DNA of 64,000 bases from Nitrospirota bacterium. Its GTDB lineage: Bacteria; Nitrospirota; UBA9217. Positions 11,290-35,591 of the stretch are shown piece by piece. Location: positions 192,001 through 256,000 of the forward strand of contig CAVVOB010000012.1 of the NCBI GenBank assembly GCA_963749655.1, given 5' to 3'. Below the pieces are notes generated by a model, which was given only the letters and a program-made list of their open reading frames with translations, was not told where the DNA came from and ran no database searches. A program made the translations under genes and the position numbers. The first letter of the stretch is position 1. Each line of letters begins with the position of its first letter.

Positions 11290-12249
11290 ATGTTGAAACG
11301 CGGTGAGAAGATATCCGTGATCGTTCCTTGCTACAACGAGGAGTCCGTAATAGTTGAATCGTACCAGCGCATAAATAGTGTTTTGACGAAGAATGATTTC
11401 GATCGCTACGAGATTCTATTTATAGATGACGGCAGTACGGATCGAACACCTGACCTGTTATGGGAATTATCAGGAGACAATAAATCCGTCAAGGTGATCA
11501 GGTTTTCCCGTAATTTCGGCCATCAAGCAGCGGTGACGGCCGGTATTCAATATTCTTCCGGCGACCTGGCTGTTATTCTCGATGCGGATTTACAGGACCC
11601 GCCGGAACTCATCCCTGACATGGTACGCATGGCAGTGAGTGAGAAAGCAAATGTTGTTTACGGCGTTCGCAAAGAACGGGACGGCGAGGGCTTTCTTAAG
11701 TTACTTACCGCTAAACTGTATTATCGTATTATGAATCATCTTTCCGAGGTGCCGCTTCCCCTGGATACCGGTGATTTCAGGCTGATCGACAAAAAAGTCA
11801 TTAAGGAATTCAAAAAACTGAAGGAGAAACGCAAGTATGTCCGTGGCTTGATCAGCTGGATCGGTTTCCGGCAGATACCCCTGTATTATTCACGCGCCCC
11901 GCGCTTCGCCGGCAAAACAAAGTATTCCGCAAAAAAAATGATAGGCTTCGCAGCCACCGGCCTTCTTTACTTCACAAAAAAACCGCTCAGACTCGCCCTG
12001 TCCCTCGGTTTTTTCAGCGTCTTAGTGGGAGTTTTACTGACTATCTATGTTTTCGTGTCCAAGTATTTGAATGCAAACGCAGCGGTACCCGGCTGGGCTT
12101 CGACCTTGATCGTCATAATATTTTTCGGGGGAGTTCAGCTTGTCACGGTCGGGGTTATGGGAGAATACATAGGCGGCATTTTCGATGAGGTAAAGGAAAG
12201 GCCGGAATTTATTATCGATGAAAAGGTTAATTTAGATGAAGAACCGTAG
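11290..12249 (+). CDS. GT2 polyprenyl-phosphate glycosyltransferase (GtrB/ArnC-like)
   Basis: ISVIVPCYNEE, DDGSTD, FSRNFGHQAA, LDADLQDPP, two C-terminal TM helices. Confidence 0.93.
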   Translation: MLKRGEKISVIVPCYNEESVIVESYQRINSVLTKNDFDRYEILFIDDGSTDRTPDLLWELSGDNKSVKVIRFSRNFGHQAAVTAGIQYSSGDLAVILDADLQDPPELIPDMVRMAVSEKANVVYGVRKERDGEGFLKLLTAKLYYRIMNHLSEVPLPLDTGDFRLIDKKVIKEFKKLKEKRKYVRGLISWIGFRQIPLYYSRAPRFAGKTKYSAKKMIGFAATGLLYFTKKPLRLALSLGFFSVLVGVLLTIYVFVSKYLNANAAVPGWASTLIVIIFFGGVQLVTVGVMGEYIGGIFDEVKERPEFIIDEKVNLDEEP

Positions 12250-13714: not shown

Positions 13715-13793
13715 CTCCCTTCGCCGTGGACCGATCTGACGGGAATGCTCTTTTTTCTGGATGTTTCCCCGTCAATTTGTTACTCTACCGTCC

Positions 13794-15062
13794 ATGGCAA
13801 ACCAACCTGTCTCCCGCAACCCCTGGTCTTTTCTTCCCACGCTCTATTTCGCCGAGGGTCTCCCCTACGTCCTGATCAACACCGTTTCGGTGATCCTGTA
13901 CAAGCGAATGGGCATCGACAACGCCCACATCGCTTTCTGGACGAGCTGGCTCTATCTGCCCTGGGTCATCAAGATGTTCTGGGGCCCTTTCGTGGACGTG
14001 TACTCGACCAAGCGGAAATGGATCCTCGCCACCCAGGCAACGATGAGCTTCTGCATGTTCCTCGTCGCATTCTCGCTCAGGACGGACTCGTTCTTCGCCC
14101 TGTCGCTTGCGGCCTTTTTCGCGGGAGCCTTCGTCTCCGCGACCTATGACATCGCCACGGACGGCTTCTACATGCTGGCGCTCACGGAAAAGGACCAGGC
14201 GCTTTTCGTGGGGCTTCGCGCAGGCTTCTACCGGCTGGCGATGATCTTCGGGTCGGGCGCCCTGGTCTATCTTGCCGGCATGCTCGAGACATCGAGCGGG
14301 GACATCGCCTGGAGCTGGTCGACGGCAATGATCGTCTCAGGCCTCATCTTCGCGAGCGCGTGGCTGTACCATAAATTTATGCTTCCGTTCCCGCCAGCGG
14401 ACCGGGGAAACCCGGCACGGGAACGAACAGCAGGAGCTTCCTTCGGCGAGGTCATCAATGCCTATTTCAGGCAGGACAAGATCGGCGTGACGCTCGCCTT
14501 CATTCTCCTCTACCGCCTGGGCGAGGCCATGCTGCTCAAGCTGGTTACCCCCTTTCTTCTCGACAAGGCCGAAGCGGGCGGGCTGGGGCTGTCAACACAG
14601 GATGTGGGGATCGTTTACGGAACAATCGGTGTGATCTGTCTGGTGGCGGGGGGGATCCTGGGCGGATGGCTCATCTCGCGGTTCGGATTCAGGCGCTGCG
14701 TCTGGCCCATGGTGATCGCCATGCACCTGCCCGACCTGTTTTTCGTGTATATGGCTTATGCGCAGCCGGGCATCGGCTTTGTGTACCCGCTCGTCGCCCT
14801 TGAGCAGTTCGGCTACGGGCTGGGCTTTACCGTGTTCACGGTCTACCTCATGTACTCCGTGGACAGCCGGTACAAGACGTCGCACTACGCCATTTCAACG
14901 GGCATCATGGCCCTCGGCATGATGCTTCCGGGTTTTGCCAGCGGATGGATCCAGCAGCAGGCGGGCTACAGGATGTTCTTCATCATCGTGTGCCTGATGA
15001 CCATCCCGGGAATGCTGACTATTCCTTTTCTCGCAAAGGAGCGGATGGACCGGCAGGGGTGA
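13794..15062 (+). CDS. AmpG-like MFS permease
   Basis: LYFAEGLPY, LPWVIK.FW.PFVD, SATYDIATDGFY. Confidence 0.85.
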   Translation: MANQPVSRNPWSFLPTLYFAEGLPYVLINTVSVILYKRMGIDNAHIAFWTSWLYLPWVIKMFWGPFVDVYSTKRKWILATQATMSFCMFLVAFSLRTDSFFALSLAAFFAGAFVSATYDIATDGFYMLALTEKDQALFVGLRAGFYRLAMIFGSGALVYLAGMLETSSGDIAWSWSTAMIVSGLIFASAWLYHKFMLPFPPADRGNPARERTAGASFGEVINAYFRQDKIGVTLAFILLYRLGEAMLLKLVTPFLLDKAEAGGLGLSTQDVGIVYGTIGVICLVAGGILGGWLISRFGFRRCVWPMVIAMHLPDLFFVYMAYAQPGIGFVYPLVALEQFGYGLGFTVFTVYLMYSVDSRYKTSHYAISTGIMALGMMLPGFASGWIQQQAGYRMFFIIVCLMTIPGMLTIPFLAKERMDRQG

Positions 15063-15125
15063 AGCAGCCGCGGCCATTGGATGCTCCGCGGCGTTCCCGA
15101 CAATCTGCGGTTTTGCCGGGCGGAT

Positions 15126-15371
15126 CTAGTCCTTCCACCCTCCGGCCAGAACATATCCGATTATCACGCCGATGATCGGGCCGATGGTCTCGCGGCCGAG
15201 AACGCCGATCGCGCCGAGCGCCAGCATGAGAGGCAGGACGAGTACGATCGAAACCAGCTGCAGCGTCTTGCCCCCGATCGTTGCGTTCTGCTTGACGATG
15301 AGCGAGTAAACGCCCCACAAACCTGCCCCCATGACGATCATCGCGACCACTGCGATCACTGTATTCCACAC
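15126..15371 (-). CDS. Small membrane protein (about 3 TM)
   Basis: Hydrophobic 81-aa ORF with upstream GGAGG. Confidence 0.6.
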   Translation of the reverse strand: MWNTVIAVVAMIVMGAGLWGVYSLIVKQNATIGGKTLQLVSIVLVLPLMLALGAIGVLGRETIGPIIGVIIGYVLAGGWKD

Positions 15372-15582
15372 ATTATTAATCCAGACGACCTCCCGGTAAA
15401 ATAATGGCTTTGCCGCAGACTGCGGCCAATGAACGAGGCACCATTATAAGGGAACCGGCAGTGCGTTGTCAAAGAGTAAAAACAACTGCGGTCCTGGACA
15501 ACAAGGGATGGCAATGTTCCGGGAAAGCAGGTACAATTGAAGCATCGACGGCTTTTATCGGGGCGTCAACAGGGAGGCGACT

Positions 15583-16512
15583 ATCGAAAAGGTTCTCTAT
15601 GAATTCGGTCTCATCATCGCGGCGGGATACGGCTGGCGGTGGTTCAATCCCGGCGGGCTCGACCGGCACCGCGCGCGCCATGCGCTGAGCGTGACGGTAC
15701 TGCACGTTTTTCTTCCGGCGCTGGCTTTCGGGCTTGTTGCATCGACGAAGGTAGACCGGAGCTTCGTCGCTGTTCCGCTCACGGCCGCTGCTGTTGTTCT
15801 TGTTTCGCTCGCAGCCGGTTTTGTTGCATACAAACTGCTTCCCTGGTTCCGGGACATCCCGCCACGCGCCTTCGGCGTCATGATGCTGTCCGCCGCCTTC
15901 GGCAACGTCACCTATCTCGGGCTGCCGGTCATTACGGAAATGCTCGGCCCCGGCTACGGCTATGTCGCGGTCCTGTACGATCTGCTGGCCTCGACGCCGA
16001 TTCTGCTCACGGTCGGGGTGTTCATCGCGGCGCGCTACGGCAGCGGCAGGGCGCTGTCCGTCGCCGCATCGTTGAAGCGGGTCGTGCTTCTTCCGCCGCT
16101 CTGGGGCGTGGTCGCGGGCATTGCGGTCCGGCTGGCCCACCTCCCGGTGCCTCAGCTGGTGCTGGATACAGCGACGCTCATGGGCAAGGCGGTGATTCCA
16201 ATCATGATCTTCACGGTCGGCCTCGCCCTCGATTTCCGGGACGTCAAGCGGCTGCCCATTGCGATCCCCGCGCTTGCGATCAAGCTGCTGGCCGCGCCGG
16301 TCCTGGCATGGTGGGCCGGATCGCGGCTCGGACTGGCCGGTCCGGTGCTCGAAGCATCGGTCGTCGAAGGCGCCATGCCGGTCATGGTGCTGTCGCTTGT
16401 GATCGCCGACGAGTTCGAGCTTGATGTGCCCCTGGCCGCGGCGTGCATCGCGGCATCGACCGTTCTCTTGTTCTTTACCATGCCGCTCATGATGAAGGCG
16501 GTGCAGGTATGA
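15583..16512 (+). CDS. AEC (auxin efflux carrier / membrane transport) family transporter
   Basis: FLPAL.F, GNVTYLGLP, EGAMP; the frame stays open back to an ATC behind AGGGAGG. Confidence 0.85.
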   Translation: MEKVLYEFGLIIAAGYGWRWFNPGGLDRHRARHALSVTVLHVFLPALAFGLVASTKVDRSFVAVPLTAAAVVLVSLAAGFVAYKLLPWFRDIPPRAFGVMMLSAAFGNVTYLGLPVITEMLGPGYGYVAVLYDLLASTPILLTVGVFIAARYGSGRALSVAASLKRVVLLPPLWGVVAGIAVRLAHLPVPQLVLDTATLMGKAVIPIMIFTVGLALDFRDVKRLPIAIPALAIKLLAAPVLAWWAGSRLGLAGPVLEASVVEGAMPVMVLSLVIADEFELDVPLAAACIAASTVLLFFTMPLMMKAVQV

Positions 16513-17895
16513 AAACAACAAAGGAGTACGACGTCATCATCATCGGGTCCGGGCCCGGCGGGCATTTTCGCCGCCCTCGAACTCGTCCGGAAGCCCGGGC
16601 TCAGGATCCTCATGGTCGAGAAGGGCAGCGACATCAACGAGCGCTCGTGCCCCATGGTCGAGTCCGACATCGCCTGTGTTCAGTGCAGCCTCTGCAGCAT
16701 CCTCTGCGGATGGGGAGGAGCGGGGGCGTACAGCGACGGCAAGCTGACCCTCACGCCCGACTTCGGCGGCTGGCTCAAAGACTATATTTCCCAGGACGAC
16801 CTCCTGTCGTTCATCGATTACGCTGATTCCGTGTACCAGTCCTTCGGCGCCGGCGGCGAAGTCCACGGCGGCGACACCGAAGCGGTGTCTCGTCTCAGGA
16901 AAAAGGCCGCAGGCTACAACCTGGAGCTCATCCCCGCGCGGATCAGGCATATCGGCACGGACCTCTGCCGCGAGGTATTGAGAAAGATCAGGGAGCATTT
17001 GAACGGAAAGGTGGACATCCTGTTCGACGTGCCGGTGGAGCAGATCAGGACGAGGGACGGCCAGGTGTCGGGAATCGTAACGACGAAGGGGGACGCCTAC
17101 GACGCCCGTTTTGTCGTCGCGGCAGCAGGCAGGGAAGGCTCGTCCTGGCTTTCGGGAGAGGCGAAACGGCTGGGGCTTCCGGTCCAGAAGAACCCGGTCG
17201 ACATCGGCGTGCGCGTCGAGCTTCCGGCGCACATCATGAAGGACATCACCGACATCGCCTACGAGGGCAAGTTCATCTACTTCTCCCGCCGGTTTCGCGA
17301 CCGCGTGCGGACGTTCTGCATGAACCCTTACGGTGAGGTGGTGAAGGAGTACAGCGAGGGCATCTGCAGCGCGAACGGCCACAGCTACAAGAACCGCAAG
17401 ACCGGCAACACGAATTTCGCCCTGCTCGTGAGCACCGACTTTACCCGGCCCTTCAACGATCCCATCGCCTACGGCAGGTATATTGCCGGGCTCGCGAACC
17501 TGCTGGGAGGCGGGGTGATCGTTCAGCGGCTCGGCGACCTCAAGATGGGAAGGCGTTCCACGGCCGAGCGCATCGCCGAAGGATCGGTCCGGCCGACGCT
17601 CGATGACGCGGCGCCGGGCGACCTCAGCTTCGTATTGCCCTACCGCCACCTGCACAATATCACCGAAATGCTCGAGGCGCTCGACAACGTGGCGCCGGGA
17701 GTGAACTCCGGTGACACGCTGCTCTACGGCGTGGAAGTGAAGTTCTACTCCATGAAGCTCAAGCTTTCCTCGTGCCTCGAAACGGAAGTGAGGAATCTCT
17801 TTGCCGCGGGCGACGGCGCGGGGGTGACCCGCGGCCTGATCCAGGCGTCCATCTCCGGGATCGTTGCGGCGCGGGAAGTGCTGAAAAGGGTGTGA
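16509..17895 (+). CDS. FAD-dependent oxidoreductase/dehydrogenase (COG2509-like; frameshift near 16560)
   Basis: YDVIIIGSGPGG, GWGGAGAYSDGK, RHIGTD, RTFCMNP, GDGAGVTRG; ATGA overlap with the AEC gene. Confidence 0.85.
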
Positions 17896-18456: not shown

Positions 18457-21416
18457 GTGTTTTCTCCCTGGGTCCTGCTTGCTGTAATACTTTCCTATCT
18501 CCTGCTCCTCTTTTCGGTCGCCTATTTCGCCGAACGCAAGGAGGCGCAGGGCAGGAGCCTCGTCTCCAATCCCTACATCTATTCGCTCTCCCTTGCCGTA
18601 TACTGCACCTCCTGGACGTTCTACGGCAGCGTGGGCAAGGCCGCCAATTCGGGCCTGAGCTTTCTCACGATCTATATCGGACCGACGCTCATGGCGGCGC
18701 TCTGGTGGGTCGTCCTGCGCAAGATCGTCCTATCGCGAAGGAGAACCGGATCACCACGATCTCGGACTTCATCTCGTCGCGCTACGGAAAGTCCCTCGGC
18801 CTGTCGGTCCTGGTCACGATCGTGGCGGTCGTCGGCATCACGCCCTATCTCGGGCTCCAGCTCAAGGCCATCATGACCGCCTTTGCCCTGCTCTCGGGGA
18901 GGTCCCAGGGCAGCCACCTGGCAGGCTGGTTCACGGGCTGGTTCATCTCGCTGCTGCTCGGGCATCTTCGCCGTCATCTTCGGAGCGCGAAGGCTCGATG
19001 CGTCGGAGCGCCACGGCGGCCTGGTCTTTGCCGTGGCCTTCGAGTCGGCGATCAAGCTGGTCGCGTTTCTGCTCGTCGGGGTCTTCGTGACCTACGGGCT
19101 CTTCAACGGGTTCGGCGACATCTTCGGAGGATCGCCGCGGGGCCCTACGCCCCGCTCATGAAGATCGGCGACGGGTCTCCGGTCAGCTTTCTGGAATGGA
19201 CCTCGCTCACCTTTCTGTCCATGATGGCCATCCTGTTCCTGCCCCGCCAGTTCCATGTGGCGGTCGTGGAAAACTATTCGGTGGACCACATCAAGAAGGC
19301 CATGTGGCTGTTTCCGCTGTATCTGTTCCTGATCAACATCTTCGTGCTTCCCATCGCCTACGGCGGGCTGCTGCTGGGCGACATCCCGTCCACGGCCGAC
19401 TATTTCGTGCTGACCATCCCCATGCACCACGGCCACCCGCTCCTGGCGCTCATCGTGTTCATCGGCGGGTTCTCGGCGGCAACGGCCATGATCATCGTGG
19501 AATCGGTCGCGCTTAGCACCATGGTGATGAACAGCTTCGTCATGCCGACGTTCTGGGACCTTCCGCCGTTCAAGAATTTTCATGCCGTGATGCTGAACAT
19601 CAAGCGGATGGTCATCCTGGGGTGCGTGTTCCTGGGCTATATTTTCGCCGTGTACATCGGCGATTATTACAGCCTCGTGGACATCGGGCTCAAGTCCTTC
19701 GAAGCGGTCACGATCTTCGCGCCGTCCATCCTGCTCGGCCTCTACTGGAAGGGCGGCAACAAGAAGGGGGCCATCGCCGGCATCGTCGCCGGGTTCAGCG
19801 TCTGGATCTATACGCTGCTGATCCCGGCGCTCATGCGCGCCGGCATCATCCAGCAGGGCGATCTCCTGGAGGCGATCGTCAGGTCAACGCTGCTGAATCC
19901 CACGGCGCTCTTCGGACTCGAAGGCCTCGACCGCTGGAGCCATTCCCTGTTCTGGGGGCTGTTGCTGAACCTGCTCTTCTATGTGGGCGTGTCGCTCTTC
20001 ACGAGGCAGTCCGATGCCGAGACGCACCAGGCCATCATTTTCGTCGATTCCTTTTCACCGCTCCAGTTCTCCGCAGACCCAGCGGCCGCTGGACATCGGC
20101 GAGATCGAGACATGCTCGGCCAGTATATCGGGCCCGGCGAAGCGCGCGAGCGTGGACGAGTTTTCTCAGATACAACGGACTGGAGCGCACAGAGCCTGTC
20201 CGGCGAGTGGCTGCTGAAGCTCCGGCAGGAGGCGGAGCGGATCCTTTCGGGCGCGCTGGGGCCGTCGATCAGCACGCTGGTGTTCCAGGACAAGACGGTC
20301 CTGACGCATGAAGAGGCGCTGCGGGTCTCGAAATCGATCCGGCAGATCTCGCGGAGCCTGCAGATTGTCGCGGCAGGAGCTTGCCGAGGCGAACCGGCAG
20401 CTCGCCATGCTCAAGGAGTTCAGCGAGAACATCATCGAAAGCCTTCCCCTCGGCGTGGCGACGCTCGATGAATCGCTGCGCGTCAAGTACTGGAACAGCG
20501 GCATGGAGCTGATCACGGGCGTGGAAAAGTCGGATGCCATGAACCGGGACGCCGCCAGCTGCTCACCTGCCTCGAGCCGCGCCTCTTCAGCCCCACGGTG
20601 CATGAGGGCGAGATCACCTGCCGAAGGAACTTCGATCCCCAGATCATCCTGAAGGGGAACCTGAGCAAGCTCACCGGCGCCCACAAAGGGTATGTGCTCG
20701 TGCTCGAGGACATCACCGAGAAGAAGAAGATCGAGGAGGAGCTGTTCCGGGCGACCAAGCACGCCAGCGTGGGCCGGCTCGCCGCGGGCGTGGCCCACGA
20801 GATCGGCAACCCCCTTGCCTCCATCTCGTCGCTGGTGCAGGAGCTCCAGACCGAGGAGCTGACGTCCTTTGTCCGGGAGTCGCTCACCACGATCAACGAG
20901 CATGTGCACCGCATCGCGCGGATCGTGCGGAACCTCGGCGATTTCGCCCGGCTCTATCCGCGCCAGAAAATGCCGACGAGCCTCCGGGACATCCTGGAGA
21001 ACACGCTGAACCTGGTGCGGTACGACAGGAAGTTCAAAAAGATCGAGATCCGCACGGACGTGCAGGATACGCCGCCGCTCAAGATCGATCCCGGACCAGA
21101 TCCAGCAGGTGTTCCTGAACCTGATCCTGAACGCCCGCGACGCCATGCCCGACGGCGGAAGCCTCGACATCGTCCATCGGGCAGACCGACGGCCAGGTGC
21201 CGGATGGTCTTCGCCGACACCGGGACCGGCATCGAGACGGAGGTGAAGGACAAGGTCTTCGACCCCTTCTTCAGCACCAAGGGGCCGACCAAGGGCACGG
21301 GCCTGGGCCTCTCGATCTGCTACAGCATCATCAAGGACCACGGCGGCACGATCGAGATCGATTCGGAAAAGGACAAGGGGACGAAGTTCATTATCACGAT
21401 TCCGGTGGAAGCGTAG
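18457..21416 (+). CDS. Sodium:solute symporter-STAC-PAS-histidine kinase, CbrA/CrbS-like (several frameshifts)
   Basis: [60 protein letters not shown]...GTGLGL. Confidence 0.88.
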
Positions 21417-21420
21417 ACGC

Positions 21421-21880
21421 TATCCGCAGATTACGCAGATTTCCAGATAGCTGACAAATATGCAGGAGCTGGCAAAAGAAATGGTCGAGGCGACAAAAAA
21501 TGATCCGAGGACTTATGCGGTCATTGGGGCCGCCATGGAAGTCCATCAACAACTAGGATGCGGGTTCCTGGAAGGTGTATATCAAGAGGCGTTTGCACTG
21601 GAGTTGGCGGCAAAAGGCATCCCTTTTCAATCCGAAATGGAATTGCCGATTTCTTATAAGAGTAAGAGGCTTCGTACATCCTATCGTGTCGACTTTATCT
21701 GCTATGATTCTGTCATCGTCGAGCTTAAGGCTTTAGCAAAACTGTCCAAAACGGAAGAGGCTCAAATAATTAATTACTTGAAAGCGACTGGCTTTCCAAT
21801 AGGCCTTCTCATAAATTTTGGTTCCACATCGCTTGAATACCGTCGTTTTGCGTTTTCTCACTCTGCGGAATCTGCGGATA
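21421..21880. mobile_element. Putative GxxExxY element bounded by 20-bp inverted repeats
   Basis: TATCCGCAGATTACGCAGAT (21421-21440) against the reverse complement of 21861-21880, TATCCGCAGATTCCGCAGAG (18/20); lower GC; lies between kinase and regulator. Confidence 0.6.
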
Positions 21881-21894
21881 AATATATACAATAG
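21460..21894 (+). CDS. GxxExxY protein (PD-(D/E)XK nuclease fold)
   Basis: GAAMEVH..LGCGFLEGVYQE, YRVDF, VELKA, AQIINYLKATG, GLLINFG; start may be 21481. Confidence 0.92.
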   Translation: MQELAKEMVEATKNDPRTYAVIGAAMEVHQQLGCGFLEGVYQEAFALELAAKGIPFQSEMELPISYKSKRLRTSYRVDFICYDSVIVELKALAKLSKTEEAQIINYLKATGFPIGLLINFGSTSLEYRRFAFSHSAESADKYIQ

Positions 21895-21902
21895 AGGTTT
21901 CA

Positions 21903-23264
21903 ATGTCCAAAAGCATCTTGATCGTGGAAGACGAAGAGACGCTGCGGGAGTCCATCAAGCGGATCTTCACCAAGGAAGGCTACGCCGTGGAAGGGGCGGA
22001 GTCGGCGGAGAAGGGCTGGAGCTGCTGGGCACGAACAGTCTACGACGTGATCATCTCGGACATCATCCTGCCGGGCATGGACGGCATCGAGATGCTCACC
22101 AAGGTGCGGGAGCAGATCCCGGACCAGATCGTCATCGTCGTCACCGCCTATGCGTCGCTCGATACGTCGGTCAAGGCGCTCCGGGCCGGCGCCTACGACT
22201 ACATCATGAAGCCGATCATCCACGAGGAGATCAAGCAGATCGTCCGGAACGCGCTCCGCCAGAAGAGCCTCCAGACCGAGAACGTGCTGCTCAAGCGGGA
22301 GATCGGGAAGGACTACGATTTCAGCAGCATCATCGGCGAGAGCGCCGGCGCTCAAGACCATCTCGACGAGGTCAAGAAGGTCACGGACACCAAGAGCAGC
22401 GTGCTGCTCCTCGGCGAGACCGGCACGGGCAAGGAGCTCTTTGCGCGGGTCATCCACCACAACAGCTCCCGGCGCGACATGCCCTTTGTCCCGATCAACT
22501 GCTCCGCGATCCCCGAGAACCTGCTCGAGACCGAGCTCTTCGGCCACGTGCGCGGCGCCTTTACCGGCGCCGTGGCGACCAAGAAGGGCATCCTCGAGGA
22601 CGCCGAGGGCGGCACCGTGTTCCTCGACGAGATCGGCGACATGAGCCTGGCGCTCCAGGCCAAGCTGCTCCGCGTGATCGAGGACCAGGTGATCCGGCCC
22701 GTGGGCAGCACCAAGGGCACCAAGGTGGACATCCGGTTCATCACGGCGACGAACAAGGACCTGAAGTCCGCGGTCAAGACGGAGCGCGTTCCGCGAGGAC
22801 CTCTACTACCGCATCAATGTCATCTCGCTCCAGATCCCGCCGCTCCGGGAACGGAAGGAAGACATCCGCGTCGCTGGTGCAGCACTACCTGGCAGATATG
22901 CCCAGGAGATGGGCAGGCAGGTCAAGGAGCTCTCCCCCGAAGCCATGGATCTCATGATGAACTACGAGTGGGCCGGGAACGTGCGCGAGCTCCAGAACGT
23001 CATCGAGCGGGCCATCCTCATTTCCGACGGCGACGTCATCAGGCCGGAGCATCTGCCCGGCGGCGTGACGGCCGGGATCGACGTTCGAGCTCGAGTCCTT
23101 CGACCAGAAGCTTTCGATCGAGGACTACACCAAGGCCTTCATCCTGCGCTACCAGGCCGAGTTCAACGAACAGCAGCTCGCCGATCATGCTCGGGATCAC
23201 CCGGAAATCGCTCTGGGAGAAGCGGAAGAAATGGGGGATCCCGAAAGAGCGGCAGGTCACATAG
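21903..23264 (+). CDS. Sigma-54-dependent response regulator, CbrB/NtrC-like (frameshifts at about 22790-23190)
   Basis: REC domain, GETGTGKE, GAFTGA, FLDEIG, WAGNVREL, C-terminal LGITRKSLWEKRKKWGI. Confidence 0.9.
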   Translation: MSKSILIVEDEETLRESIKRIFTKEGYAVEGAESAEKGWSCWARTVYDVIISDIILPGMDGIEMLTKVREQIPDQIVIVVTAYASLDTSVKALRAGAYDYIMKPIIHEEIKQIVRNALRQKSLQTENVLLKREIGKDYDFSSIIGESAGAQDHLDEVKKVTDTKSSVLLLGETGTGKELFARVIHHNSSRRDMPFVPINCSAIPENLLETELFGHVRGAFTGAVATKKGILEDAEGGTVFLDEIGDMSLALQAKLLRVIEDQVIRPVGSTKGTKVDIRFITATNKDLKSAVKTERVPRGPLLPHQCHLAPDPAAPGTEGRHPRRWCSTTWQICPGDGQAGQGALPRSHGSHDELRVGRERARAPERHRAGHPHFRRRRHQAGASARRRDGRDRRSSSSPSTRSFRSRTTPRPSSCATRPSSTNSSSPIMLGITRKSLWEKRKKWGIPKERQVT

Positions 23265-23342
23265 CTTCAGCCATCCGCTCTGTCCCTGATACAGAAAACC
23301 ACAGAACTTGTGTTTCTCTTTGCGCGACATATCCTTTCCCTT

Positions 23343-23619
23343 AAACCTGGAAGGGCAGTTGGAACCACAGATAAACACGGATGAACGCAGATGAAAAAAG
23401 GTATACGAGTGCTTCAAGGATTTGCATTAACGCTCTGACTTATCTGTGTCTATCAGTGTTCATCCATGGTTAATTGTTCTTCAGTCCATCAAAAACCTGG
23501 AAGGGCAGATGGAACCACAGATAAACACGGATGAACGCAGATGAAAAAATGCATACGAGTATTAACGCGCTTATTTATCCGTGTCTATCAGTGTTCATCC
23601 GTGGTTAATTGTTCTTCAG
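23343..23619. repeat. Two tandem copies of a palindromic element with 10-mer periodic arms
   Basis: aaacctggaagggcag..ggAACCACAGATAAACACGGATGAACGCAGAT ... ATC(t/c)GTGTCTATCAGTGTTCATCC(a/g)TGGTTaattgttcttcag, present twice. Confidence 0.9.
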
Positions 23620-23662
23620 ACGAATTCAGTTCATACCCTTCTCCCCACGCTATAATATCCCT

Positions 23663-26600
23663 ATGAAGCTCTCCGATCTGCTCGATATCCGGGTCATAGC
23701 CGTCAATCTCCGGGCACGAGACAAGAAGGCCGCGCTCGAGGAGATGGCCGGCATCCTCAAGAAGGCCGGGACGGATAGACGATTCGCGGGAAGCTGCAAG
23801 GCCCTGCTGGACAGGGAGGCCGCGGGCAGCACGGCTCTCGGCCGGGGAATCGCGTTCCCCCATGCACGGCTCGACCGCCTCAGGGAACCGGTCGCCCTGC
23901 TCGCCCTGTCGCAGAGAGGGCATTGATTTCGGCGCAGGCGACGGGCATCCCGTTCACCTGTTCTTTCTGTTCCTTTCTCCGAGCGAGGCGACGGAGATCC
24001 ATCTCCGGATCCTTTCCCGCGCAGCGGCAATCTTTTCCGACGCCAACCTCTATCACACCATACGGAGGGCCAGGACAAGCCAGACGGTCCTGAGTCTTCT
24101 GCTCCACCACGAAAAGGGCCCGAAGGAAGCCTTTTTCCCCCTCGCCATCGAGGACATCTACCAGGAGCTGGGAACGGACAGCCGCGGGCTTGCGGAAAGC
24201 GAGGCTGCGAAACGGCTCGGCCGCTACGGTCCGAACCTCCTGAAAGAGGTGAGGGGGAAGCCCCTCGTTCTCCGGTTCGTCGAAAATCTTACGAGCTTCT
24301 TCGCGCTCCTGCTCTGGGTAGGCGGCATTCTTTCCTTTGTCGCGGACATGGCCGAGCTCGGCTGGGCGATCTTCAGCGTCATCATCATCAACGCGGTCTT
24401 CAGTTTCTGGCAGGAGTACAAGGCCGAGCGGGCGCTCGAGGCGCTTAAGAAACTGCTCCCCCAAAACGCCCGGGTGCTGCGCGACGGGGCAAAGAAGGAA
24501 GTGCCGGCTACCGATCTCGTGCCGGGCGATATCATCCTTCTGGAGGAGGGCGACGCGGTCTCCGCAGACGCGCGTCTCATCGAAGCCTTCGACATGCGGG
24601 TCGACAACTCCACTCTGACCGGAGAGTCGAAGCCCATCCACAAGACCGCCGAGGCCGTTGCCGACGGCAGTGAGTTTCTCTGGACCGAGCTCCCGAACCT
24701 GGTCTTTGCCGGGACTTCGGTCTCGTCGGGAAACGGAAAGGCGGCGGTCATCGCAACGGGAATGCATACCGAGATCGGCAGGATCGCTTCGCTGACCCAG
24801 GAGCTTGCAGATCGAGAAAAGCCCGCTTCAGCTCGAGATCGAAAAGGTCACGAAGATCGTGACCCTGCTCGCCGTGTCCATGGGCGTCCTCTTTTTCGTC
24901 GTCGGCACCTCCCTCGGCAAGCTGAGCCTTGCCGCTGCCTTCCTTTTTGCCATCGGGATCATCGTGGCCAACGTTCCGGAAGGCCTCCTCCCGACGGTCA
25001 GCCTGTCGCTCGCCATGGCGGTCCAGCGAATGGTCAAACGGCATGTGCTCGTAAAGAGGCTTTCGTCCGTCGAGACCCTGGGATGCACGAGCGTCATCTG
25101 CACGGACAAGACCGGCACCCTCACGACCAACAAGATGACGGCGACGAAGGTCTGGGTAAACGGAAAAACGGTGGACATCAGCGGAGCGCACTACGAGCCT
25201 TCGGGAAGCTTCTACGAACAGGGAGTTTCCCTTTCCCACGAGGAGATGAAGAGCAACGGGCTCTACCAGCTCTTTGACGCGGCGCTTCTGTGCAACAACT
25301 CATCGTTGATCGCGCCGAAGAGGCCGGGAGAGGAGTGGACGATCCTGGGCGATCCCACCGAAGCCGCCCTCCTCGTCATGGCTGCCAAGGGCGGAATAGA
25401 CGTGAGCGCCCGGGCGGCAGCACTTCCCCGGATCGGCCATCTTCCCTTCGAGTCCCTGCGAAAGCGCATGACCAGCGTCAACCTTGTGGAGGGAAAACCC
25501 GTAGCCCATGTCAAAGGAGCGCCCGCGGAAATGCTCGAGCTCTGCACGCGCGTACTTCTGAACAACTGCAGCGAGCCGCTGACCGAGGAGCTGCGGCGTC
25601 AGATCGGCTCGCAGAATGATGCCCTGGCAAAGGACGGTCTGCGCGTGATCGGTGTAGCGGCAAGGCCCCTTGAATCGACCGGGAAGTTCACGGTGGAGAA
25701 TACGGAGCGCGACCTGGTGTTCCTCGGTCTCGTCGGGATGATGGACCCGCCGCGGCCCGAGGTGCCCGGCGCCATGGAACTTTGCCGCAGGGCCGGCATC
25801 CGGACCATCATGATCACCGGCGACTACGGTCTCACCGCCCTCGCCATAGCGCGAAAGATCGGGCTCGCGCGAACGGAAACGCCGCGCGTCGTGACCGGGC
25901 TCGAACTCGACGGAAGCGACGACAACGGTCTTACGCAGCTTCTGAAGGGCGAAGTGATCTTCGCCCGCGTCACGCCGGAGCACAAGATGAGGATCGTTTC
26001 GAGCCTGCAGCAGTCGGGGGAAGTCGTGGCGGTGACGGGCGACGGGGTGAACGACGCGCCTGCCCTGAAGAAGGCGGACATCGGCGTCGCCATGGGCATG
26101 CGGGGCTCGGATGTGGCCAAGGAGGCCGCGGCCATGATCCTGACGGACGACAACTTCGCCTCCATCGTGTCCGCCATCGAGGAAGGCCGGGCGGTCTATA
26201 CCAATATCAAGAAGTTCATTGCCTACATATTCGCGAGCAATATTCCCGAGGTCGTTCCGTTCATCGCCTTCGCGCTCTTCAGAATACCGCTTCCGCTTAC
26301 GGTCATGCAGATCCTGGCGGTGGACCTCGGCACCGACCTCGTGCCCGCGCTGGGCTTGGGAACGGAACCTCCCGAGCCCGGAACCATGGACCAGCCGCCG
26401 CGGCCGAGAAACAAGCGGCTTCTCGATCTCCCGCTTCTCCTTCGCGCGTACTGTTTTCTCGGACCGATCGAGGCAGCGGCCAGTATGGCCGGGTTCTTCC
26501 TTATCTACTGGCAGAGCGGATGGCGGCCGGGAATGTCCATGGCGGATTCGGGAGCATTGTACGTAGCGGCCACCACGATGTCGCTGGCCGGCATTGTGGC

Positions 26601-26862
26601 CTCCCAAATGGGAAACGTGTTTGCCTGCAGGACCGAACGGGAATCGATCTTCCGCGTAGGATTTTTCTCGAACAAACTAGTTCTTTGGGGTCTTGCGACA
26701 GAAGTCGCCATTTTGACAGCGCTCGTGTATACGCCTGTCATGCAGGAGATCTTCGGTCTCGCGCCGCTCGTCTTCCGGGACTGGGCCCTGCTGCTCGTCT
26801 TTCCCCCGGTTCTCCTCCTGCTGGAGGAAGCGCGAAAATGGATTGTAAGAAGGGCACGATGA
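23663..26862 (+). CDS. PTS EIIA(Ntr/Fru)-domain fused P-type cation ATPase, P2C-like (frameshifts near 23915 and 24808)
   Basis: REAAGSTALGRGIAFPHAR, GIDF.AGDG.PVHLFF; TGES, VANVPEGL, DKTGT, TGD, GDGVNDAPALK, SNIPE, DLGTD. Confidence 0.88.
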
Positions 26863-26994
26863 ACGATCCGCCGTACCTGCGCGATTTCCCGGTTTTTTCC
26901 CTGTTGTGAAACCGACCCGCCGTGGTTCAGCTTTGTTGATTTGCCGCTGCGTGGTATACTATTTTATAATTCACCGAACGGAAGACATCTGACA

Positions 26995-27972
26995 ATGAAA
27001 CAGATTACCATCCATGAAGCGATCCTGGACAGCATGAGCGACTCGGTCTACGTCGTGGACCGGCGCATGCGGATCCAGTACGCGAATCCCGCTGCTGAAA
27101 AATTGACCGGGTACTCCTGCGATGCCTCCATAGGGAAGTATTGCCATGCTATCTTTTGTGAGCAGTCGGACCGGTGCGAGAAAGGGTGTCCGCCGAAACA
27201 AGCCATGCTGGAGGAGGCGCCGATCCTCCACCGCGACGCGGAAACGAGGGCGCTGGACGGCACAGTGCGCCGGACGCAGATATCGATCTCACCGTTCTTC
27301 GACGACGGCCGGTGCATCGGGGCGGTCATCGTGATCAAGGATATTACGGATCTCAAGCAGGCGGAGGAAAGGATCAAGCACCAGAACACGTTCCTGACCG
27401 CGGTTATCGATGCTCTGCCTCATCCGTTCTCCGTTATCGACGCCCGGGACTACCAGTTGAGGCTTGCGAATTACGCGGCATACCGCGGCGACATGCCGGA
27501 GCGCATCACCTGTTATCAGCTCTCACACAGCCGTCAGTCGCCGTGCAGCGGCGAGGGCCATCCCTGCCCCATCGAGACGGTGAAGGAAACGGGCCGGCCG
27601 GTGACGGTGGAGCACAGGCACTGCGACGCGGCGGGAACGTGCAGGGACGTGGAGGTCCACGGATATCCGATCTTCGACGACAAGGGCACGGTCGTCCAGA
27701 TGATCGAATACTGCGTCGATATCTCCGAGCGGAAGCAGGCGGCAAAGGAGCGGGAAGCGCTCATTACCGACCTGCAGAAGGCGTTGAACGAAGTCAAGGC
27801 TCTGAGCGGCCTGCTCCCCATCTGCTCATCGTGCAAGAAGATCAGGGACGACAGGGGATACTGGAGCAACGTGGAGACTTACATCAGCGAGCATTCCGGC
27901 GCTGAGTTCAGCCACGGCATCTGCCCCGACTGCATGGAACGGCTGTATCCGGAATTCGTCAAGAAACGCTGA
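26995..27972 (+). CDS. PAS-PAS protein with Cys-rich C-terminal tail
   Basis: Two PAS/PAC repeats (IKDITD, VDISERK), LLPICSSCKKIRDD...FSHGICPDC. Confidence 0.85.
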   Translation: MKQITIHEAILDSMSDSVYVVDRRMRIQYANPAAEKLTGYSCDASIGKYCHAIFCEQSDRCEKGCPPKQAMLEEAPILHRDAETRALDGTVRRTQISISPFFDDGRCIGAVIVIKDITDLKQAEERIKHQNTFLTAVIDALPHPFSVIDARDYQLRLANYAAYRGDMPERITCYQLSHSRQSPCSGEGHPCPIETVKETGRPVTVEHRHCDAAGTCRDVEVHGYPIFDDKGTVVQMIEYCVDISERKQAAKEREALITDLQKALNEVKALSGLLPICSSCKKIRDDRGYWSNVETYISEHSGAEFSHGICPDCMERLYPEFVKKR

Positions 27973-31102: not shown

Positions 31103-34100
31103 ATGTCAGAATCGAACCTTTCATTATTCCATCCCCTCATCAGACAGTGGTTCAGGGAGAAGGTCGGCGCTCCCACCGAGGTCCAGGAGAAGTCCTGGCC
31201 CGCGATTGCCCGGGGCAGCCACGTGCTCGTGACCGCGCCCACGGGCTGCGGCAAGACGCTGGCCGCTTTTCTCTGGGCCGATCAACCAGCTCATTACGGG
31301 AACCTGGACCGACGGCAAAGTCCGCGTCCTCTATATCTCTCCGCTCAAAGCACTGAACAACGACGTGCAGCGAAACCTGCTTGAAGCCGCTTCAGGAGCT
31401 TGCGGGAATCATTTCGCCAGCGCGGGAGAAGCCTTCCCGGAACATCAACGTCATGACCCGGAGCGGGGACACGCCCGGCGAAGAACGCAGAAGAATGGTC
31501 CGCAGGCCGCCGGAGATCCTGATCACCACGCCCGAGTCCCTGAACCTGCTCCTGACCTCCCGGAGCGGGCGCTCGATGCTGACCGGCATTGCGACGGTGA
31601 TCCTCGACGAGATCCATGCAGTCGTCGGAACCAAGCGCGGCACGCACCTGATCACCGCCGTCGACCGGCTCGTTCCTCTTAGCGGCGACTTCCAGCGCAT
31701 CGCGCTTTCCGCAACGGTCAATCCCGTGGAGCGGGTCGCTGAGTTCGTGGGAGGCTTCCGGAAGATCGGGAAGGGCAGGGACAGTCATTTCGAAAAGCGC
31801 CCTGTTTCCGTGATCCAGTCCCGCCAGGCAAAGGCCTACGAGATCGTCGTCTCCTTCCCGCCTGATGCGCGGGAGAAGATGGTGGATGGCTCCTGGTGGC
31901 CTGCGCTCATCGATGCGTTCAAGGAGATCATCAACCAGCACCGCTCGACCCTGTTCTTCGCGAACAGCAGGAGGACCACGGAAAAGGTGACGCGGCTGAT
32001 CAATGAGGCCGAGAGGAGATCCGAGCTTGCCTATGCCCACCACGGCTCGCTCTCCCGCGAGATCCGGCTGGCCGTGGAGCAGAAGCTGAAGAACGGCGAG
32101 CTCAGGGCCATCGTGGCCACGAACTCGCTCGAACTGGGCATCGACATCGGCGCGCTCGACTCGGTCGTGCTGATCCAGACGCCGCGGTCGGTCTCGTCGG
32201 CGCTCCAGCGCATCGGACGGTCAGGCCACTCCGTGGGGGAGAAGAGCAGGGGACTTCTTTTCCCGACGCACGGACGGGATTTCGTCGACGCGGCGGTCAT
32301 GGCGCGGGCAAGCCTGGACCAGGACATCGAAGAGGTGCATCCCATCGAAGCGCCGCTCGATATCCTGGCGCAGATCATCCTCTCGATGTGCTCCATGGAG
32401 AAGTGGGACATCGACGAGCTCTACGCGTTCCTTAAAACCAGCTATCCCTACCGCGAACTGCCGCGCAAGCATTTCGACATCGTGCTCGAAATGCTCTCGG
32501 GCCGCTACGCCGACAGCCGGCTGCGGGAGCTCAAGGCCCGGGTGTCCCTCGACAAGGTGGACAATACGATCCAGGCCCACAGTGAAGTTCCCTACCTTAT
32601 CTATACCTCCGGCGGGACGATCCCCGAGCGCGGCTACTTCGACCTGCGGCTCAAGGACACCCGGGCAAAGATCGGCGAGCTCGATGAGGAATTCGTGTGG
32701 GAGCGGTCCATCGGCGAGACCTTTACCCTGGGCACCCAGCTCTGGCGGATCGAGAAGATCACGCACAACGACGTGGAGGTCGTGCCGGTCCGCTCGGCAA
32801 CGGGCATCTTCCCGTTCTGGAAAGCGGAGCAGCAGGACCGCGATTTTCATTTCTCCGAGCTGATCGGTCTCTTCCTCGAACACGCGGACAGCGTCGCTCG
32901 ACGCTCCCGATTTCCGGCAGGAGCTCCGCACCCGCTATGTCATGGAAGAGGCGGCTGCGGACGAGCTCATCGGATTTTTGAAGCTCCAGAAAGAAGCCAC
33001 GGGAACGAATCTTCCGCACCGTCATCATCTTTTGATCGAGCACGTGGAGGAGCCGGGGGACGCGGGCGATTTCAAGCAGGTGATCCTGCACACCTTCTGG
33101 GGCGGAAGGGTGAACCGTCCCTTTGCCCTGGCCCTGGCGCAGGCATGGGAAGAGAAGAACCGGAGTGCGCTTGCAGTTTATCGAGAACGACGATGCGATC
33201 CTGCTCATGCTGCCGCGCGAGTTCGAGGCTCCATGATCTTTTTTCGCTCCTGACGCCGGAGAACGTGGAGGCGTTTCTCAGAAAGCGGCTGGAGCAGACG
33301 GGCTTCTTCGGCGCCCGGTTCCGGGAGAATGCCGAGCGGGCGCTTCTGCTGCCGAAATCGAGCTTCAAGCGGAGGATGCCGCTCTGGGTCATCCGGCTCC
33401 GGTCCAAGGAGCTGCTTGCAGCAGTCCATTCCTACGAGGACTTTCCGATCCTGCTCGAAACGTGGCGCACCTGTCTTGAGGACGAGTTCGATCTCCAGCA
33501 TGTCAAGACGATGCTCGACGAAGCTCCAGACCGGCGTCGATCCGCGTCAGCGAGACCGTGACCCGCGTTGCCTCTCCCTTTGCCGGAAATCTTGTCTGGA
33601 AGCAGACGAACAAGTACATGTACGAGGACGATACGCCGGTCCTTGCCAAAGGAGTCGGCGCTCCGGCCTGATCTGATCAAGGAGCTGCTGTTCTCGACCC
33701 ACCTGCGGCCGAAGATCCCGGCGAGGTGATCAGTATCCTTGACGGGAAGCTCAAGCGTACGGCCCCGGGATATGCGCCGGCATCGGCTGTTGAGCTTCTG
33801 GACTGGGTGAAGGAACGGCTGCTCATCCCGGAGCCGGAGTGGAAGGAACTGGCGCTCGCGATCAGGAGGGACCTTGAACAGGACGCGAGGCGAGTGGCTC
33901 GTCATCGCAGTCACGCAAGCTGTTCTGGATAAGCTGGCCCGGGGTCAGGCACCCGCTTCTCTGCGCTCTCGAAATACTGCCGAAGGTGGTCGTTGCCTTC
34001 CGGCTTCATACGGACGTCCTCGAGATCAGGCCGGTGACCAGCGGACGAAAAAGCGGACACGGTCAGGCGCCGGGTCATGTCCTTTCTCCGGGCCGTCCCG

Positions 34101-35591
34101 GAGTCGATCAGGACCGCGGAGGAGTACGACCTTACGGCTTTCTTGCCGAGTGGCTGGCCTTTTACGGGCCCGTGGAGAAGGAGGAGCTTGTCTCCACTGC
34201 TCGGCATAACCATGGAACGGATCGACGAAGCGATCGAACCGCTGATCGAGTCGCAGGACCTCGGTCATGGACCGCTTCGGAGAGGAGAGCCGCGTCACTC
34301 GAAATCTGCGACAGCGGAAATCTTGAGATCCTGCTGCGCATGGCACGGCGGTACCGCCAGCCGACCTTCGAGCCCCTTCCGCTGGAGAGACTGCCGCTGT
34401 TTCTGGCAGCATGGCAGGGCATCGCCCGGTCGGGAGAATCCCTGGAGGACCTGCAGCAAAGGCTCGAGCAGCTCTTCGGATGGCCCGCGCCGGTGAATGC
34501 CTGGGAGGAATATATCCTTCCCGCCCGCATGCAGGTCTACCGGAGCGAATGGCTGGACAAGCTCATGAATTCTACCGACCTCATCTGGTTCGGCTGCGGA
34601 AAGAAACGGATCAGCCTTGCTTTCAGCCAGGACCTGGAGCTCTTCCGTCCCGCGGGAGCGGGCGAACAGGACGGCGAGCTCAGCCACCTCATCCCTGACC
34701 GCCGCGGCAAGTACAGTTTCCTGGAGATGACCGAGTTCGCGCACCTGGACACGGTCCATGCCACGGAGCTTTTGTGGAAGGAAGCCTGGAAGGGGAATGT
34801 GACGAGCGATTCGTTCCGCACGATCAGAAGGGGCGTCATGACGGGCTTCTCTGCCCAGACCTTCAGCGATGAGGCGAGGCAGACCTCGCGCAGGTCCGGG
34901 TTCAACCGGTGGAAGGTCTCCCGGCCGCTGGAAGGGAACTGGCACCGGATCGATTCGCTGCCGAACGGGAACGAAAAGGACCTGCTGTCTGAGACGAGGA
35001 GCTGGTGAAGGACCGCATCCGTCAGCTCCTGAAGCGCTACGGCGTCCTGTTCCGTCGCGACTTCTCGAGAACGAGCTTCCGCCTCTCCAGTGGCGGGCGA
35101 TCTTCCGGTCGCTCCGTCTCATGGAGCTTTCCGGCGAGGTGCTGTCAGGCTACTTTTTCGACGGCGTTCCCGGGCCGCAGTTCGTCTCCCACGAAGCCTT
35201 CCGCATGCTCCAGGAGCCGCAGCCGAAAACGCTGTCTACTGGATCAATGCGGCCGACCCTGCATCTTTCTGCGGCCTGGGACTTTCGTCGCTCCGGGCTT
35301 CCCTCGCGCATCGCCTCGACGCATCTCGTGTACCACGGCACCAGGCTCGTGATGGTCTCGAAGCGCTCGGGAAAGAACCTCGAGATCATGGTCCGGCCCG
35401 ATGATCAGCATATGGCTGAGTATTTCAAGCTGTTCAAGGACCTGCTCTCCCGCGAGTTCAACCCGCTCCAGAAGATTGTCATCGAGACGATCAACGGAGA
35501 ATCGGCTGCCCAGAGTCCCTTTGCCGCGGCGCTCAGGCAGTTCGGGTTCCGGTCTGCGAGGAGCGCGCTGGAGTTGTGGAGGGAGTATTAG
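31103..35591 (+). CDS. lhr: Lhr-like DEAD/H-box helicase (many frameshifts)
   Basis: APTGCGKT, YISPLKALNND, RSGDTP, ITTPESL, DEIH, HHGSLS, SLELGIDIG, QRIGRSGH, LDEEFV; C-terminal LL.RYGV and LRLMELSGE..SGYF. Confidence 0.85.

Follow-up and report, generated by a model that had tools for sequence, protein, structure and literature searches.

Organisation of the locus

The DNA considered here is a stretch of 64,000 nucleotides from a Nitrospirota bacterium of the lineage UBA9217 (assembly GCA_963749655.1, contig CAVVOB010000012.1, positions 192,001 to 256,000 of the forward strand); we call this whole stretch the window, and the coordinates given below are positions in it. On the plus strand, positions 23663-26862 hold a single gene, spread over three reading frames, in which a PtsN-like EIIA domain of the phosphotransferase system (PTS) is joined to a P2-type ATPase. 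Three overlapping open reading frames (ORFs) on this strand, 23609..23926, 23862..25277 and 24805..26862, together span 23609..26862, and the first of them reads MKLSDLL... from 23663 and contains the motif GIAFPHAR.

The Pfam matches follow one another through the three frames. PTS_EIIA_2 (PF00359) is matched at profile positions 2-77 in the first frame (46.2 bits, cut-off 27) and at positions 80-142 in the second (37.2 bits, same cut-off); the second frame also contains Cation_ATPase_N (60.9 bits) and positions 1-110 of E1-E2_ATPase (114.5 bits), and the third takes up E1-E2_ATPase at 107-181 and goes on with Cation_ATPase, Hydrolase and Cation_ATPase_C (170.4 bits). The per-domain E-values, 1e-9 to 1e-50, are far beyond chance. 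Since the profile coordinates run on across both frame changes, we read the three frames as one gene that is interrupted twice. If the two surplus bases are skipped, the count from the coordinates is 85 + 297 + 683 = 1065 codons, i.e. the length of the intact homologues P0001 and P0002 and of most other close homologues. The pieces are 70-87% identical to P0001, and the middle piece alone matches it with 565 bits at 87% identity and 100% coverage.

The first piece (23663..23917) comprises the N-terminal half of the EIIA domain, 85 codons from the start codon that align with residues 1-85 of P0001, and the codon of the phospho-histidine, His67, lies at 23861-23863. It ends at the first frame break (23918..23920), a GGG run with one surplus base compared to the intact homologues, and the first frame then stops at TGA 23924-23926; the pieces end with ...LALSQRG and begin with EGIDFG..., the corresponding sequence of P0001 being LALSKRGIDFG. 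The second piece (23919..24809) holds in one ORF the C-terminal half of EIIA, a linker, Cation_ATPase_N (PF00690), transmembrane helices 1-2 and the first part of the actuator domain (PF00122, positions 1-110) with its TGES motif. One surplus base is again found at the second break (24804..24810), as judged by the alignment to P0001 and by a public metagenome contig. The third piece (24811..26862) contains the rest of the ATPase through the stop codon: the M4 motif VANVPEGL, DKTGT with its Asp codon at 25102-25104, the nucleotide-binding and phosphorylation domains with GDGVNDAPAL, the M5 motif YIFASNIPE, DLGTD in M6, QMGN in M8, and M9-M10; these assignments are based on Pfam and on alignment to P0001 and to the solved chain 9roj_A.

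A first-pass annotation of this DNA had proposed an EIIA domain with its phospho-His motif, the C-terminal half of which reads straight into the pump without any repair of the frames. Both points are borne out. GIAFPHAR lies within a PF00359 match above the cut-off, the C-terminal half of EIIA and the N-terminus of the pump are uninterrupted in ORF 23862..25277, and intact relatives of 1065 residues exist. A stop codon between the two domains is found in none of the relatives, so the fusion is not refuted.

The EIIA domain

The solved structures closest to the EIIA domain are PtsN proteins (4gqx, 3urr, 1a6j and 2a0j, 82-87 bits), with the mannitol-type EIIA-Mtl at 39 bits. Membership of PTS EIIA type 2 is supported by both halves of the PF00359 profile and by the active-site His in the first piece. 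The domain does not reach the cut-off of the PtsN equivalog TIGR01419 (84.6 bits, cut-off 138.7) or that of FruA-IIA (93.5 bits, cut-off 103.5), and it is 32% identical to the free PtsN-like EIIA encoded in the same genome. Since PtsN proteins are its nearest structural relatives, the equivalog cut-off is missed and the domain is fused, it is by these comparisons PtsN-like but not a PtsN orthologue.

The phosphorylation site is strongly conserved: among 48 fused sequences that cover it, His67 is kept in 47 and a second histidine, His113, in 46. In an AlphaFold2 model of P0001 (mean pLDDT confidence 76.5) the EIIA domain scores 80-90 and the linker at 153-160 below 50, and the model gives no placement of EIIA relative to the pump. 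A complex prediction between EIIA (residues 1-152) and pump residues 160-1000, both supplied as alignments, gave a score of 0.01 and a mark of 0.32 and is neutral on docking.

The putative phosphoryl donors of the domain are encoded in the same genome. The genome of the window (a bin of 39 contigs, 86.6% complete and 5.8% contaminated) has two genes each for HPr, EI, HprK and free EIIA_2, located on contigs C24 and C27, all in intact frames. PTS_EIIC was not found in this genome at its 86.6% completeness, and, since EI, HPr and HprK are present, its PTS looks regulatory only, as far as gene content can tell. The EI genes are open frames of 594 and 612 residues, lengths which presumably leave no room for a PtsP-type GAF domain in either. 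HPr and EI are also encoded in five out of five relatives carrying the fused pump.

The PTS genes of the window's genome form two complete ptsN-hprK-ptsH-ptsI clusters (C24, about 110956-117801; C27, about 12237-16927) whose EI proteins are 45% identical, and each of the five relatives searched has one such cluster. The doubling could be true paralogy or could come from a mixed bin.

Distribution and origin of the fusion

The EIIA-pump architecture is genuine and widespread and is kept across phyla. The homologue search was made with the middle piece only (C-terminal half of EIIA and N-terminus of the pump) among longer proteins, and the best 120 matches were taken. PF00359 is present in 118 of these; 101 are full-length (1028-1187 residues with all pump domains), 8 are partial, 9 are chimeras from Brocadia and 2 lack EIIA. 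The fused proteins among these best 120 matches are 51-87% identical, and the source names include Nitrospirota, Planctomycetota (Brocadiaceae), 'Deltaproteobacteria', Nitrospinae and Krumholzibacteriaceae. Of 40 genomes related to that of the window, three carry the fused gene intact (G007, 80% identical; G006, 77%; G019, 75%), as stop-free open frames of 1079-1092 residues; in one further relative (G030) the fused gene extends over two contig ends, and in another (G008) it is cut by the contig start. The remaining relatives contain only unfused pumps, at most about 55% identical, whose matches start near residue 160. A profile of the EIIA domain alone (A3) retrieved 8 further complete fused ORFs among 80 metagenome loci, with DKTGT in the same frame in 10 of the 80. 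The best 150 matches in a library of 50%-identity representatives, many of which are fragments, comprised 2 full-length fused proteins and about 11 more N-terminal pieces or chimeras.

Two trees were calculated from the pump body only, with the EIIA columns excluded; both are unrooted, so that one origin means one change of state. In the FastTree phylogeny of 108 rows all 49 sequences labelled as fused lie, together with L071, on one side of a branch with a Shimodaira-Hasegawa-like (SH-like) support of 100. L071 was labelled unfused by our rule, yet on inspection its N-terminus is a diverged EIIA-like sequence. A quick IQ-TREE run (LG+G4) on 59 of the 108 rows, 26 fused and 33 unfused, gave one change of the fused label, with a value of 99 in the SH-like approximate likelihood ratio test. 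As judged by these trees, the fusion is the product of one change of state.

Other arrangements of the same parts were seen in the course of the searches. Nine proteins from Brocadia (P0109-P0117) are chimeras, such as the 678-residue P0111, which breaks off early in the pump: its residues 36-391 match the K+ importer KimA, 393-521 PtsN and 535-677 the beginning of a P-type ATPase. Such chimeras were seen on many contigs, one of them 4.03 Mb long, and could be either genuine new proteins or what a deletion has left. A PtsN-like EIIA domain is also found at the C-terminus of other long proteins (L126, L132, L133, L141, L144, L147, L149 and others), with 350-770 residues of open frame upstream of the domain. 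The same holds for proteins of 850-900 residues that have two matched stretches (P0128, P0129, P0139 and others).

Class of the pump

The class of the pump was judged by the scores of subfamily hidden Markov models and by rankings of sequences in the Protein Data Bank (PDB). The P-type ATPase superfamily model TIGR01494 is clearly passed (244 bits for the third piece of the window gene and 306.8 for P0001, cut-off 62.3), and with TGES, DKTGT and GDGVNDAPAL all seen in the window frames the catalytic core is intact. The subfamily models are less decisive. For P0001 the best of them is TIGR01106, i.e. the IIC type comprising Na,K- and H,K-ATPases, with 645.8 bits against a cut-off of 946.1; the PMR1-type Ca-ATPase model TIGR01522 follows with 630.4 (cut-off 798.3), the SERCA-type model TIGR01116 with 561.4 (cut-off 703.4) and a further Ca/Mg family model with 382.2 (cut-off 610.75), so that among the NCBIfam models only the general P-type one is above its cut-off.

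Comparison with solved structures is clearer. P0001 alone scores 567 bits with Na,K-ATPase alpha-3, 507 with LMCA1, 474 with SPCA and 444 with SERCA. With a profile of 35 fused proteins the 36 best PDB sequences are all Na,K- or H,K-ATPase alpha subunits (721-776 bits), followed by LMCA1 (682), SPCA (659) and SERCA (652), and the best solved Ca-ATPase lies about 95 bits under the top P2C chains. By profile as well as by sequence scores, the best-scoring relatives are not of the P2A type.

The membrane segments point in the same direction. VANVPEGL, SNIPE and DLGTD, which had been singled out at the outset as Na,K-ATPase-type segments, are all found, and in the alignment each of their residues is paired with its counterpart in human Na,K-ATPase alpha-3. 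In the alignment to 9roj_A the M4 segment IGIIVANVPEGLL is identical, YIFASNIPE of M5 faces YTLTSNIPE, DLGTDLVPA of M6 faces DLGTDMVPA, and the two chains also line up in the Gln of M8 and in a Glu of M9. The cation-site motifs of M4, M5 and M6 (the Glu of PEGL, Ser-Asn-x-x-Glu and Asp-x-x-x-Asp), whose residues we take to be ion ligands, are conserved to a degree that varies from site to site, in 37-49 of 49 fused sequences, and the window protein has the canonical set of ion-site residues. Two P2C hallmarks are missing. M8 reads QMGN where 9roj_A has QWAD, i.e. all 49 fused sequences have an Asn in place of the Asp that belongs to the third Na+ site of Na,K-ATPase. The loop between M7 and M8 has lost about 25 residues by comparison, query residues 577-592 facing 872-911 of 9roj_A with the region of beta-subunit contact left unaligned. 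The earlier designation 'Na+/K+-ATPase-like (P2C)' can therefore be kept in part: the M4, M5 and M6 motifs and the best profile and sequence scores speak for it, whereas the missed TIGR01106 cut-off, the M8 Asn and the short loop speak against full membership. On the available comparisons the pump is nearest to P2C but, by the curated threshold, outside it, and it lacks the M8 Asp and the long M7-M8 loop.

Gene neighbourhood and cargo

The flanks of 17 fused loci were scanned, namely those of the window, L020-L024, L071 and ten metagenome loci. K+ transport genes lie near four of them. In G006, which belongs to the same genus as the window's genome, the gene after the fused pump, in the same orientation, encodes a KdpD-like kinase (DUF4118-GAF-HisKA-HATPase, the layout of the C-terminal half of KdpD) and the next one a 666-residue permease whose sole PDB match is the K+ importer KimA (6s3k, E 1.9e-58). 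At L109 a TrkH gene ends 25 bases ahead of the pump gene, at L118 TrkH is found upstream, and at L110 KdpC is located upstream and TrkA, Usp and an APC permease downstream. The KimA portion of the Brocadia chimeras is a further link of this architecture to potassium.

RCK proteins are standard gating subunits of K+ transporters and channels, and they are neighbours of a part of the unfused relatives (L026-L098). The following counts are from the genome-scan loci. TrkA_N, mostly with TrkA_C, makes up 31 of 122 nearest-downstream ORFs and occurs in 17 of 63 loci, as a pair in 14; all 17 loci with a downstream TrkA_N/TrkA_C carry unfused pumps, mainly from Bacillota, Chloroflexota and Collinsella. 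Tandem Usp is the nearest upstream ORF in 12 of 61 loci, mostly in Nitrospira. The pump family thus seems, from this arrangement of genes, to swap regulators, i.e. an RCK pair, tandem Usp domains or a fused EIIA. The gene neighbourhood is also the basis on which we consider it rather probable that the pump is a K+-linked monovalent-cation pump.

The frame breaks in their context

Abutting frame changes like those of the pump gene also split at least four other genes of the window, found by a codon-usage scan followed by Pfam. A MacB-type permease (404-1604) is divided by Pfam into MacB_PCD (404-1159) and FtsX (1161-1604). The codon-usage scan and Pfam together resolve a histidine kinase upstream of the pump (18472-21413) into four pieces and an Lhr helicase (31384-35549) into at least four. 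In the sigma-54 response regulator between that kinase and the pump (21903-23245), positions 1-151 of Sigma54_activat lie in 21903-22784 and AAA_lid_14 in 22786-23085, and a third coding segment without a Pfam match lies in another frame at 23081-23245. These four split genes and the two breaks of the pump correspond to roughly one break per 6 kb, a density that suggests an indel-rich assembly. Public reads contribute at one of the two breaks. Three public runs contain small shares of the stretch (0.05-0.06 of the sampled words, the best 0.06), and the interval 24618-24855 is covered by a public metagenome contig of 237 nucleotides, with 8 mismatches and a depth of 2, which has one base fewer at 24810. 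Since at least four further genes of the window are split in the same manner, assembly error is likelier than gene decay, and we consider it very probable that both frame breaks of the pump gene are assembly errors.

Alternative explanations

Taken as a whole, we read the locus as one gene of about 1065 residues encoding a PTS-phosphorylation-gated monovalent-cation pump of K+ homeostasis, its breaks being assembly errors, and we give this reading somewhat better than even chances. A number of observations weigh against it, and other explanations have to be considered. One is that the gene is a pseudogene in this organism, the breaks being real mutations, so that no full-length pump would be made here even if the family is functional elsewhere. 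The gene is indeed broken twice within 900 bases in this assembly, the second break lies outside any obvious homopolymer, no read set of the organism was found (the best public share being the 0.06 given above), and the first break has zero cover in the public reads of the runs examined. The fused pump is, in addition, patchy even within the genus (3 of 14 relatives), from which we conclude that its loss is common. Decay is nevertheless improbable in our view: the same type of break recurs across the 64 kb in four or more further genes, the MacB/FtsX-type permease and the Lhr helicase among them, as expected of an error-prone assembly; apart from the two surplus bases the reading is clean, with no in-frame stops, all catalytic motifs intact and 70-87% identity to P0001; and the close public contig lacks the surplus base at the second break. 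It may also be asked whether the EIIA domain, in a pump that is made, is a phospho-switch at all or a module of PtsN descent that acts independently of phosphorylation, as a fixed autoinhibitory, oligomerisation or ligand-binding domain, with the pump outside PTS control. The scores below the PtsN and FruA-IIA cut-offs and the low identity to the genome's own PtsN-like protein would fit such a module, as would P0068, which has an Asn at the position of His67, and the strongly diverged domain of L071. Since unfused sister pumps are paired with other small regulators, RCK pairs or tandem Usp proteins, one regulator can apparently stand in for another, with no requirement that it be a phospho-switch. 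However, the retention of His67 and His113 in nearly all fused sequences in spite of 51-87% identity would be difficult to understand if the phosphorylation site had no role, and EI and HPr are encoded in all six searched genomes that have the fused pump. We therefore think a phosphorylation-independent module unlikely, if a little less so than decay, and prefer a domain that is phosphorylated by the PTS.

The cargo raises a further question, i.e. whether the pump instead transports a divalent cation, Ca2+ or Mg2+, as an ATPase of the P2A or P3B kind, in which case the Na,K-like motifs would reflect shared ancestry without bearing on what is transported. The names under which the homologues are deposited, which are automatic labels, suggest as much ('Ca2+-transporting ATPase', 'magnesium-transporting ATPase (P-type)', 'P-type Ca2+ transporter type 2C'), others being named simply 'HAD-IC family P-type ATPase'. 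TIGR01106, itself far from its cut-off, leads the PMR1-type model by only about 15 bits, and the alignments with Ca-ATPases reach the C-terminus, whereas single-sequence alignments with Na,K-ATPases break at the M7-M8 loop. The main reading is also weakened by the M8 Asn found in every fused sequence and by the changes at the ion sites of some fused subclades, PEGL to PQGL in 6 of 49 and the SN of M5 to HL in 11-12 of 49; since subclades alter these residues, the cargo may differ within the family. The other 13 of the 17 fused loci, the window among them, have no K+-related genes in the scanned flanks. As for a divalent-cation pump, every Ca/Mg family cut-off is missed, as given above, the PDB ranking of the family profile is headed exclusively by Na,K/H,K alpha subunits, and SNIPE of M5 and DLGTD of M6 are identical to Na,K-ATPase; the corresponding SERCA residues presumably differ. 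The neighbours, where they are informative, are K+ systems, namely KimA, TrkH, Kdp and RCK proteins. A divalent-cation pump is the least probable of the alternatives and we give it little credence; the divalent-cation names of these proteins are not supported by the evidence presented here.

Upstream two-component genes and other features of the window

Upstream of the pump lie the split histidine kinase and the sigma-54 regulator described above, with a PD-(D/E)XK (PDDEXK_3) gene (21460-21894) between the two. The domains of the regulator (Response_reg, Sigma54_activat, AAA_lid_14) are those of a generic NtrC-type protein. The first-pass annotation had placed the pump next to this pair, described as a 'CbrAB-like' carbon/nitrogen sensor, and we take the pairing as one of adjacency. 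A sodium:solute-symporter domain at the N-terminus is the hallmark of CbrA, and the N-terminal pieces of the kinase (547-588 residues) contain no Pfam domain, neither a solute-symporter nor any other sensor domain. There is no sigma-54 promoter-like site within 23246-23662, i.e. between the regulator and the pump gene, and the 21 sigma-54-like matches in the window (at most 2 mismatches) are below the chance expectation of 26.4. A kinase-regulator pair beside the pump is present in none of the other 16 fused loci examined. On these grounds we rejected a CbrAB-like system as a functional partner of the pump.

Most of the gap between regulator and pump is occupied by a small dispersed repeat, of which two tandem units (135-150 nucleotides, plus strand, repeat families D1 and D2, 92-96% identity) lie at 23343..23619, outside the protein. 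The repeat has partly complementary arms, and 15 copies with at most 4 mismatches are found on 10 contigs of the genome. Rfam gave no match at the gathering score in the window or in six related loci (118,139 bases).

PAS-domain proteins are encoded on the plus strand at 26941-27972 and 47362-48810. The former, directly downstream of the pump, has a Cys/His-rich tail (…ICSSCKKIRDD…HGICPDC…) without a Pfam match. At 49048-50349 (plus strand) a single frame of 434 residues combines a response-regulator receiver (residues 1-108) with an LpxC deacetylase (152-428), an unusual arrangement for the committed step of lipid A synthesis, and the gene at 55758-56417 (plus strand) combines PilZ with a receiver domain of the response-regulator type.

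A proposed mechanism

Rotation of the actuator domain drives the cycle of P-type ATPases, and in E. coli PtsN is known to bind TrkA and KdpD. We propose that the pump moves monovalent cations in the service of potassium homeostasis, probably by K+ uptake against Na+ or H+, and that EI and HPr would phosphorylate His67 of the EIIA domain, which occupies residues 1 to about 150 and is connected through a short, flexible linker to the pump just ahead of the actuator domain. Free PtsN engages K+ transport proteins in just one of its phosphorylation states, and by the same principle one form of the fused EIIA would dock on the cytoplasmic headpiece, hold the actuator domain and so restrain the cycle, and the other state would set the actuator domain free; phosphorylation may be the releasing event, or the reverse may hold. 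Since the EI proteins look standard and are accompanied by HprK, the signal would be the phosphoenolpyruvate/pyruvate ratio together with the energy state of the cell, which would set pump activity directly, and the energy state would be a sensible input for a pump that consumes ATP. Gating of the pump by the PTS is plausible on this evidence from sequences. We are more cautious about the general claim that the fused proteins are a widespread bacterial family of single origin, consisting of Na,K-ATPase-like pumps whose activity would follow directly from the phosphorylation of a histidine in their own PtsN domain, within a wider family that swaps between an RCK pair, tandem Usp and a fused EIIA; this we put forward tentatively, at somewhat less than an even chance.

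Comparison with known systems

It is instructive to compare the fused pump to systems in which one or the other of its halves is familiar. The best-scoring solved relatives, the alpha subunits of Na,K- and H,K-ATPases (P2C; PDB 8d3u, 9roj, 2zxe and 7x23), have the ten-helix P2 layout and the catalytic motifs in common with it. They differ in that the present protein has an N-terminal EIIA domain, a TIGR01106 score under the cut-off, an Asn in M8, a short M7-M8 loop and a bacterial host. In a published survey prokaryotic Na,K-like sequences group together, and they are said there to lack the SYGQ/E motif of alpha/beta assembly (PMC9609216).

Free PtsN acts in trans on YcgO, on KdpD/KdpFABC and on TrkA, and the likeness lies in the type of EIIA, in the phospho-His and in a K+-tied cation transporter as the target. 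Unphosphorylated PtsN binds and inhibits the K+/H+ antiporter YcgO (PMC11808508), and a pathway leading from PTS-Ntr through KdpDE to KdpFABC is described (PMC9239096). In the present case, in contrast, the regulator is part of the same chain as its target, which is a P2-type pump and neither an antiporter nor a sensor kinase nor the gating ring of a Trk system.

The covalent link itself has a parallel in LacS of streptococci and lactobacilli, where transport is modulated by HPr-dependent phosphorylation of a fused EIIA-Glc-like domain (PMC10710835). In both cases an EIIA domain of the PTS is linked covalently to a transporter that is itself outside the PTS. The EIIA of LacS is, however, of the glucose class and is located at the C-terminus of a secondary carrier, whereas the one described here is of the Ntr/fructose class (PF00359) and lies at the N-terminus of a primary, ATP-driven pump.

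The unfused prokaryotic relatives (about 45-57% identical; Nitrospira, Bacillota, Chloroflexota, Collinsella and some archaea) share the same pump body and most of the ion-site residues, but they have no EIIA, lie on the opposite side of the branch from the fused proteins and are adjoined by RCK or tandem-Usp genes instead. Our literature search found no paper on an EIIA-P-type ATPase fusion (Chan et al. 2010 may list such an architecture) and no functional study of the unfused relatives. A 2023 review of P-type ATPases mentions neither PTS, phosphotransferase nor EIIA (PMC10654040). The fused sequences themselves are already public, under generic names.

Biological meaning

If the proposed mechanism is true, the fused pump would represent a third, covalent mode of PTS control over ion transport. 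PtsN tunes K+ transport in trans, and its action on its targets is still being worked out; a single chain fixes both the pairing and the stoichiometry of regulator and target. A PtsN-pump in one polypeptide is a direct biochemical and structural handle, as it offers one purified protein, one histidine and one measurable ATPase activity. The pump also belongs to a large prokaryotic group, sister to the Na,K/H,K-ATPases and seemingly without earlier study, which we read from its sequences as independent of a beta subunit (a beta-subunit gene was not searched for). If the wider family swaps its cytoplasmic regulators as proposed, it would be a natural experiment in the gating of P2-type K+ pumps, and in it the ancestry and regulation of the animal sodium pump would have a model that is prokaryotic and tractable. 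Knowledge of the cargo and regulation of the fused pump would bear on the origin of the animal pump, and it would also inform the study of ion homeostasis among Nitrospirota, Omnitrophota, the anammox Planctomycetota and uncultured groups related to them. In the bacterium described here, if the reading is correct, the nutrient and energy state of the cell may directly switch a potassium-linked pump.

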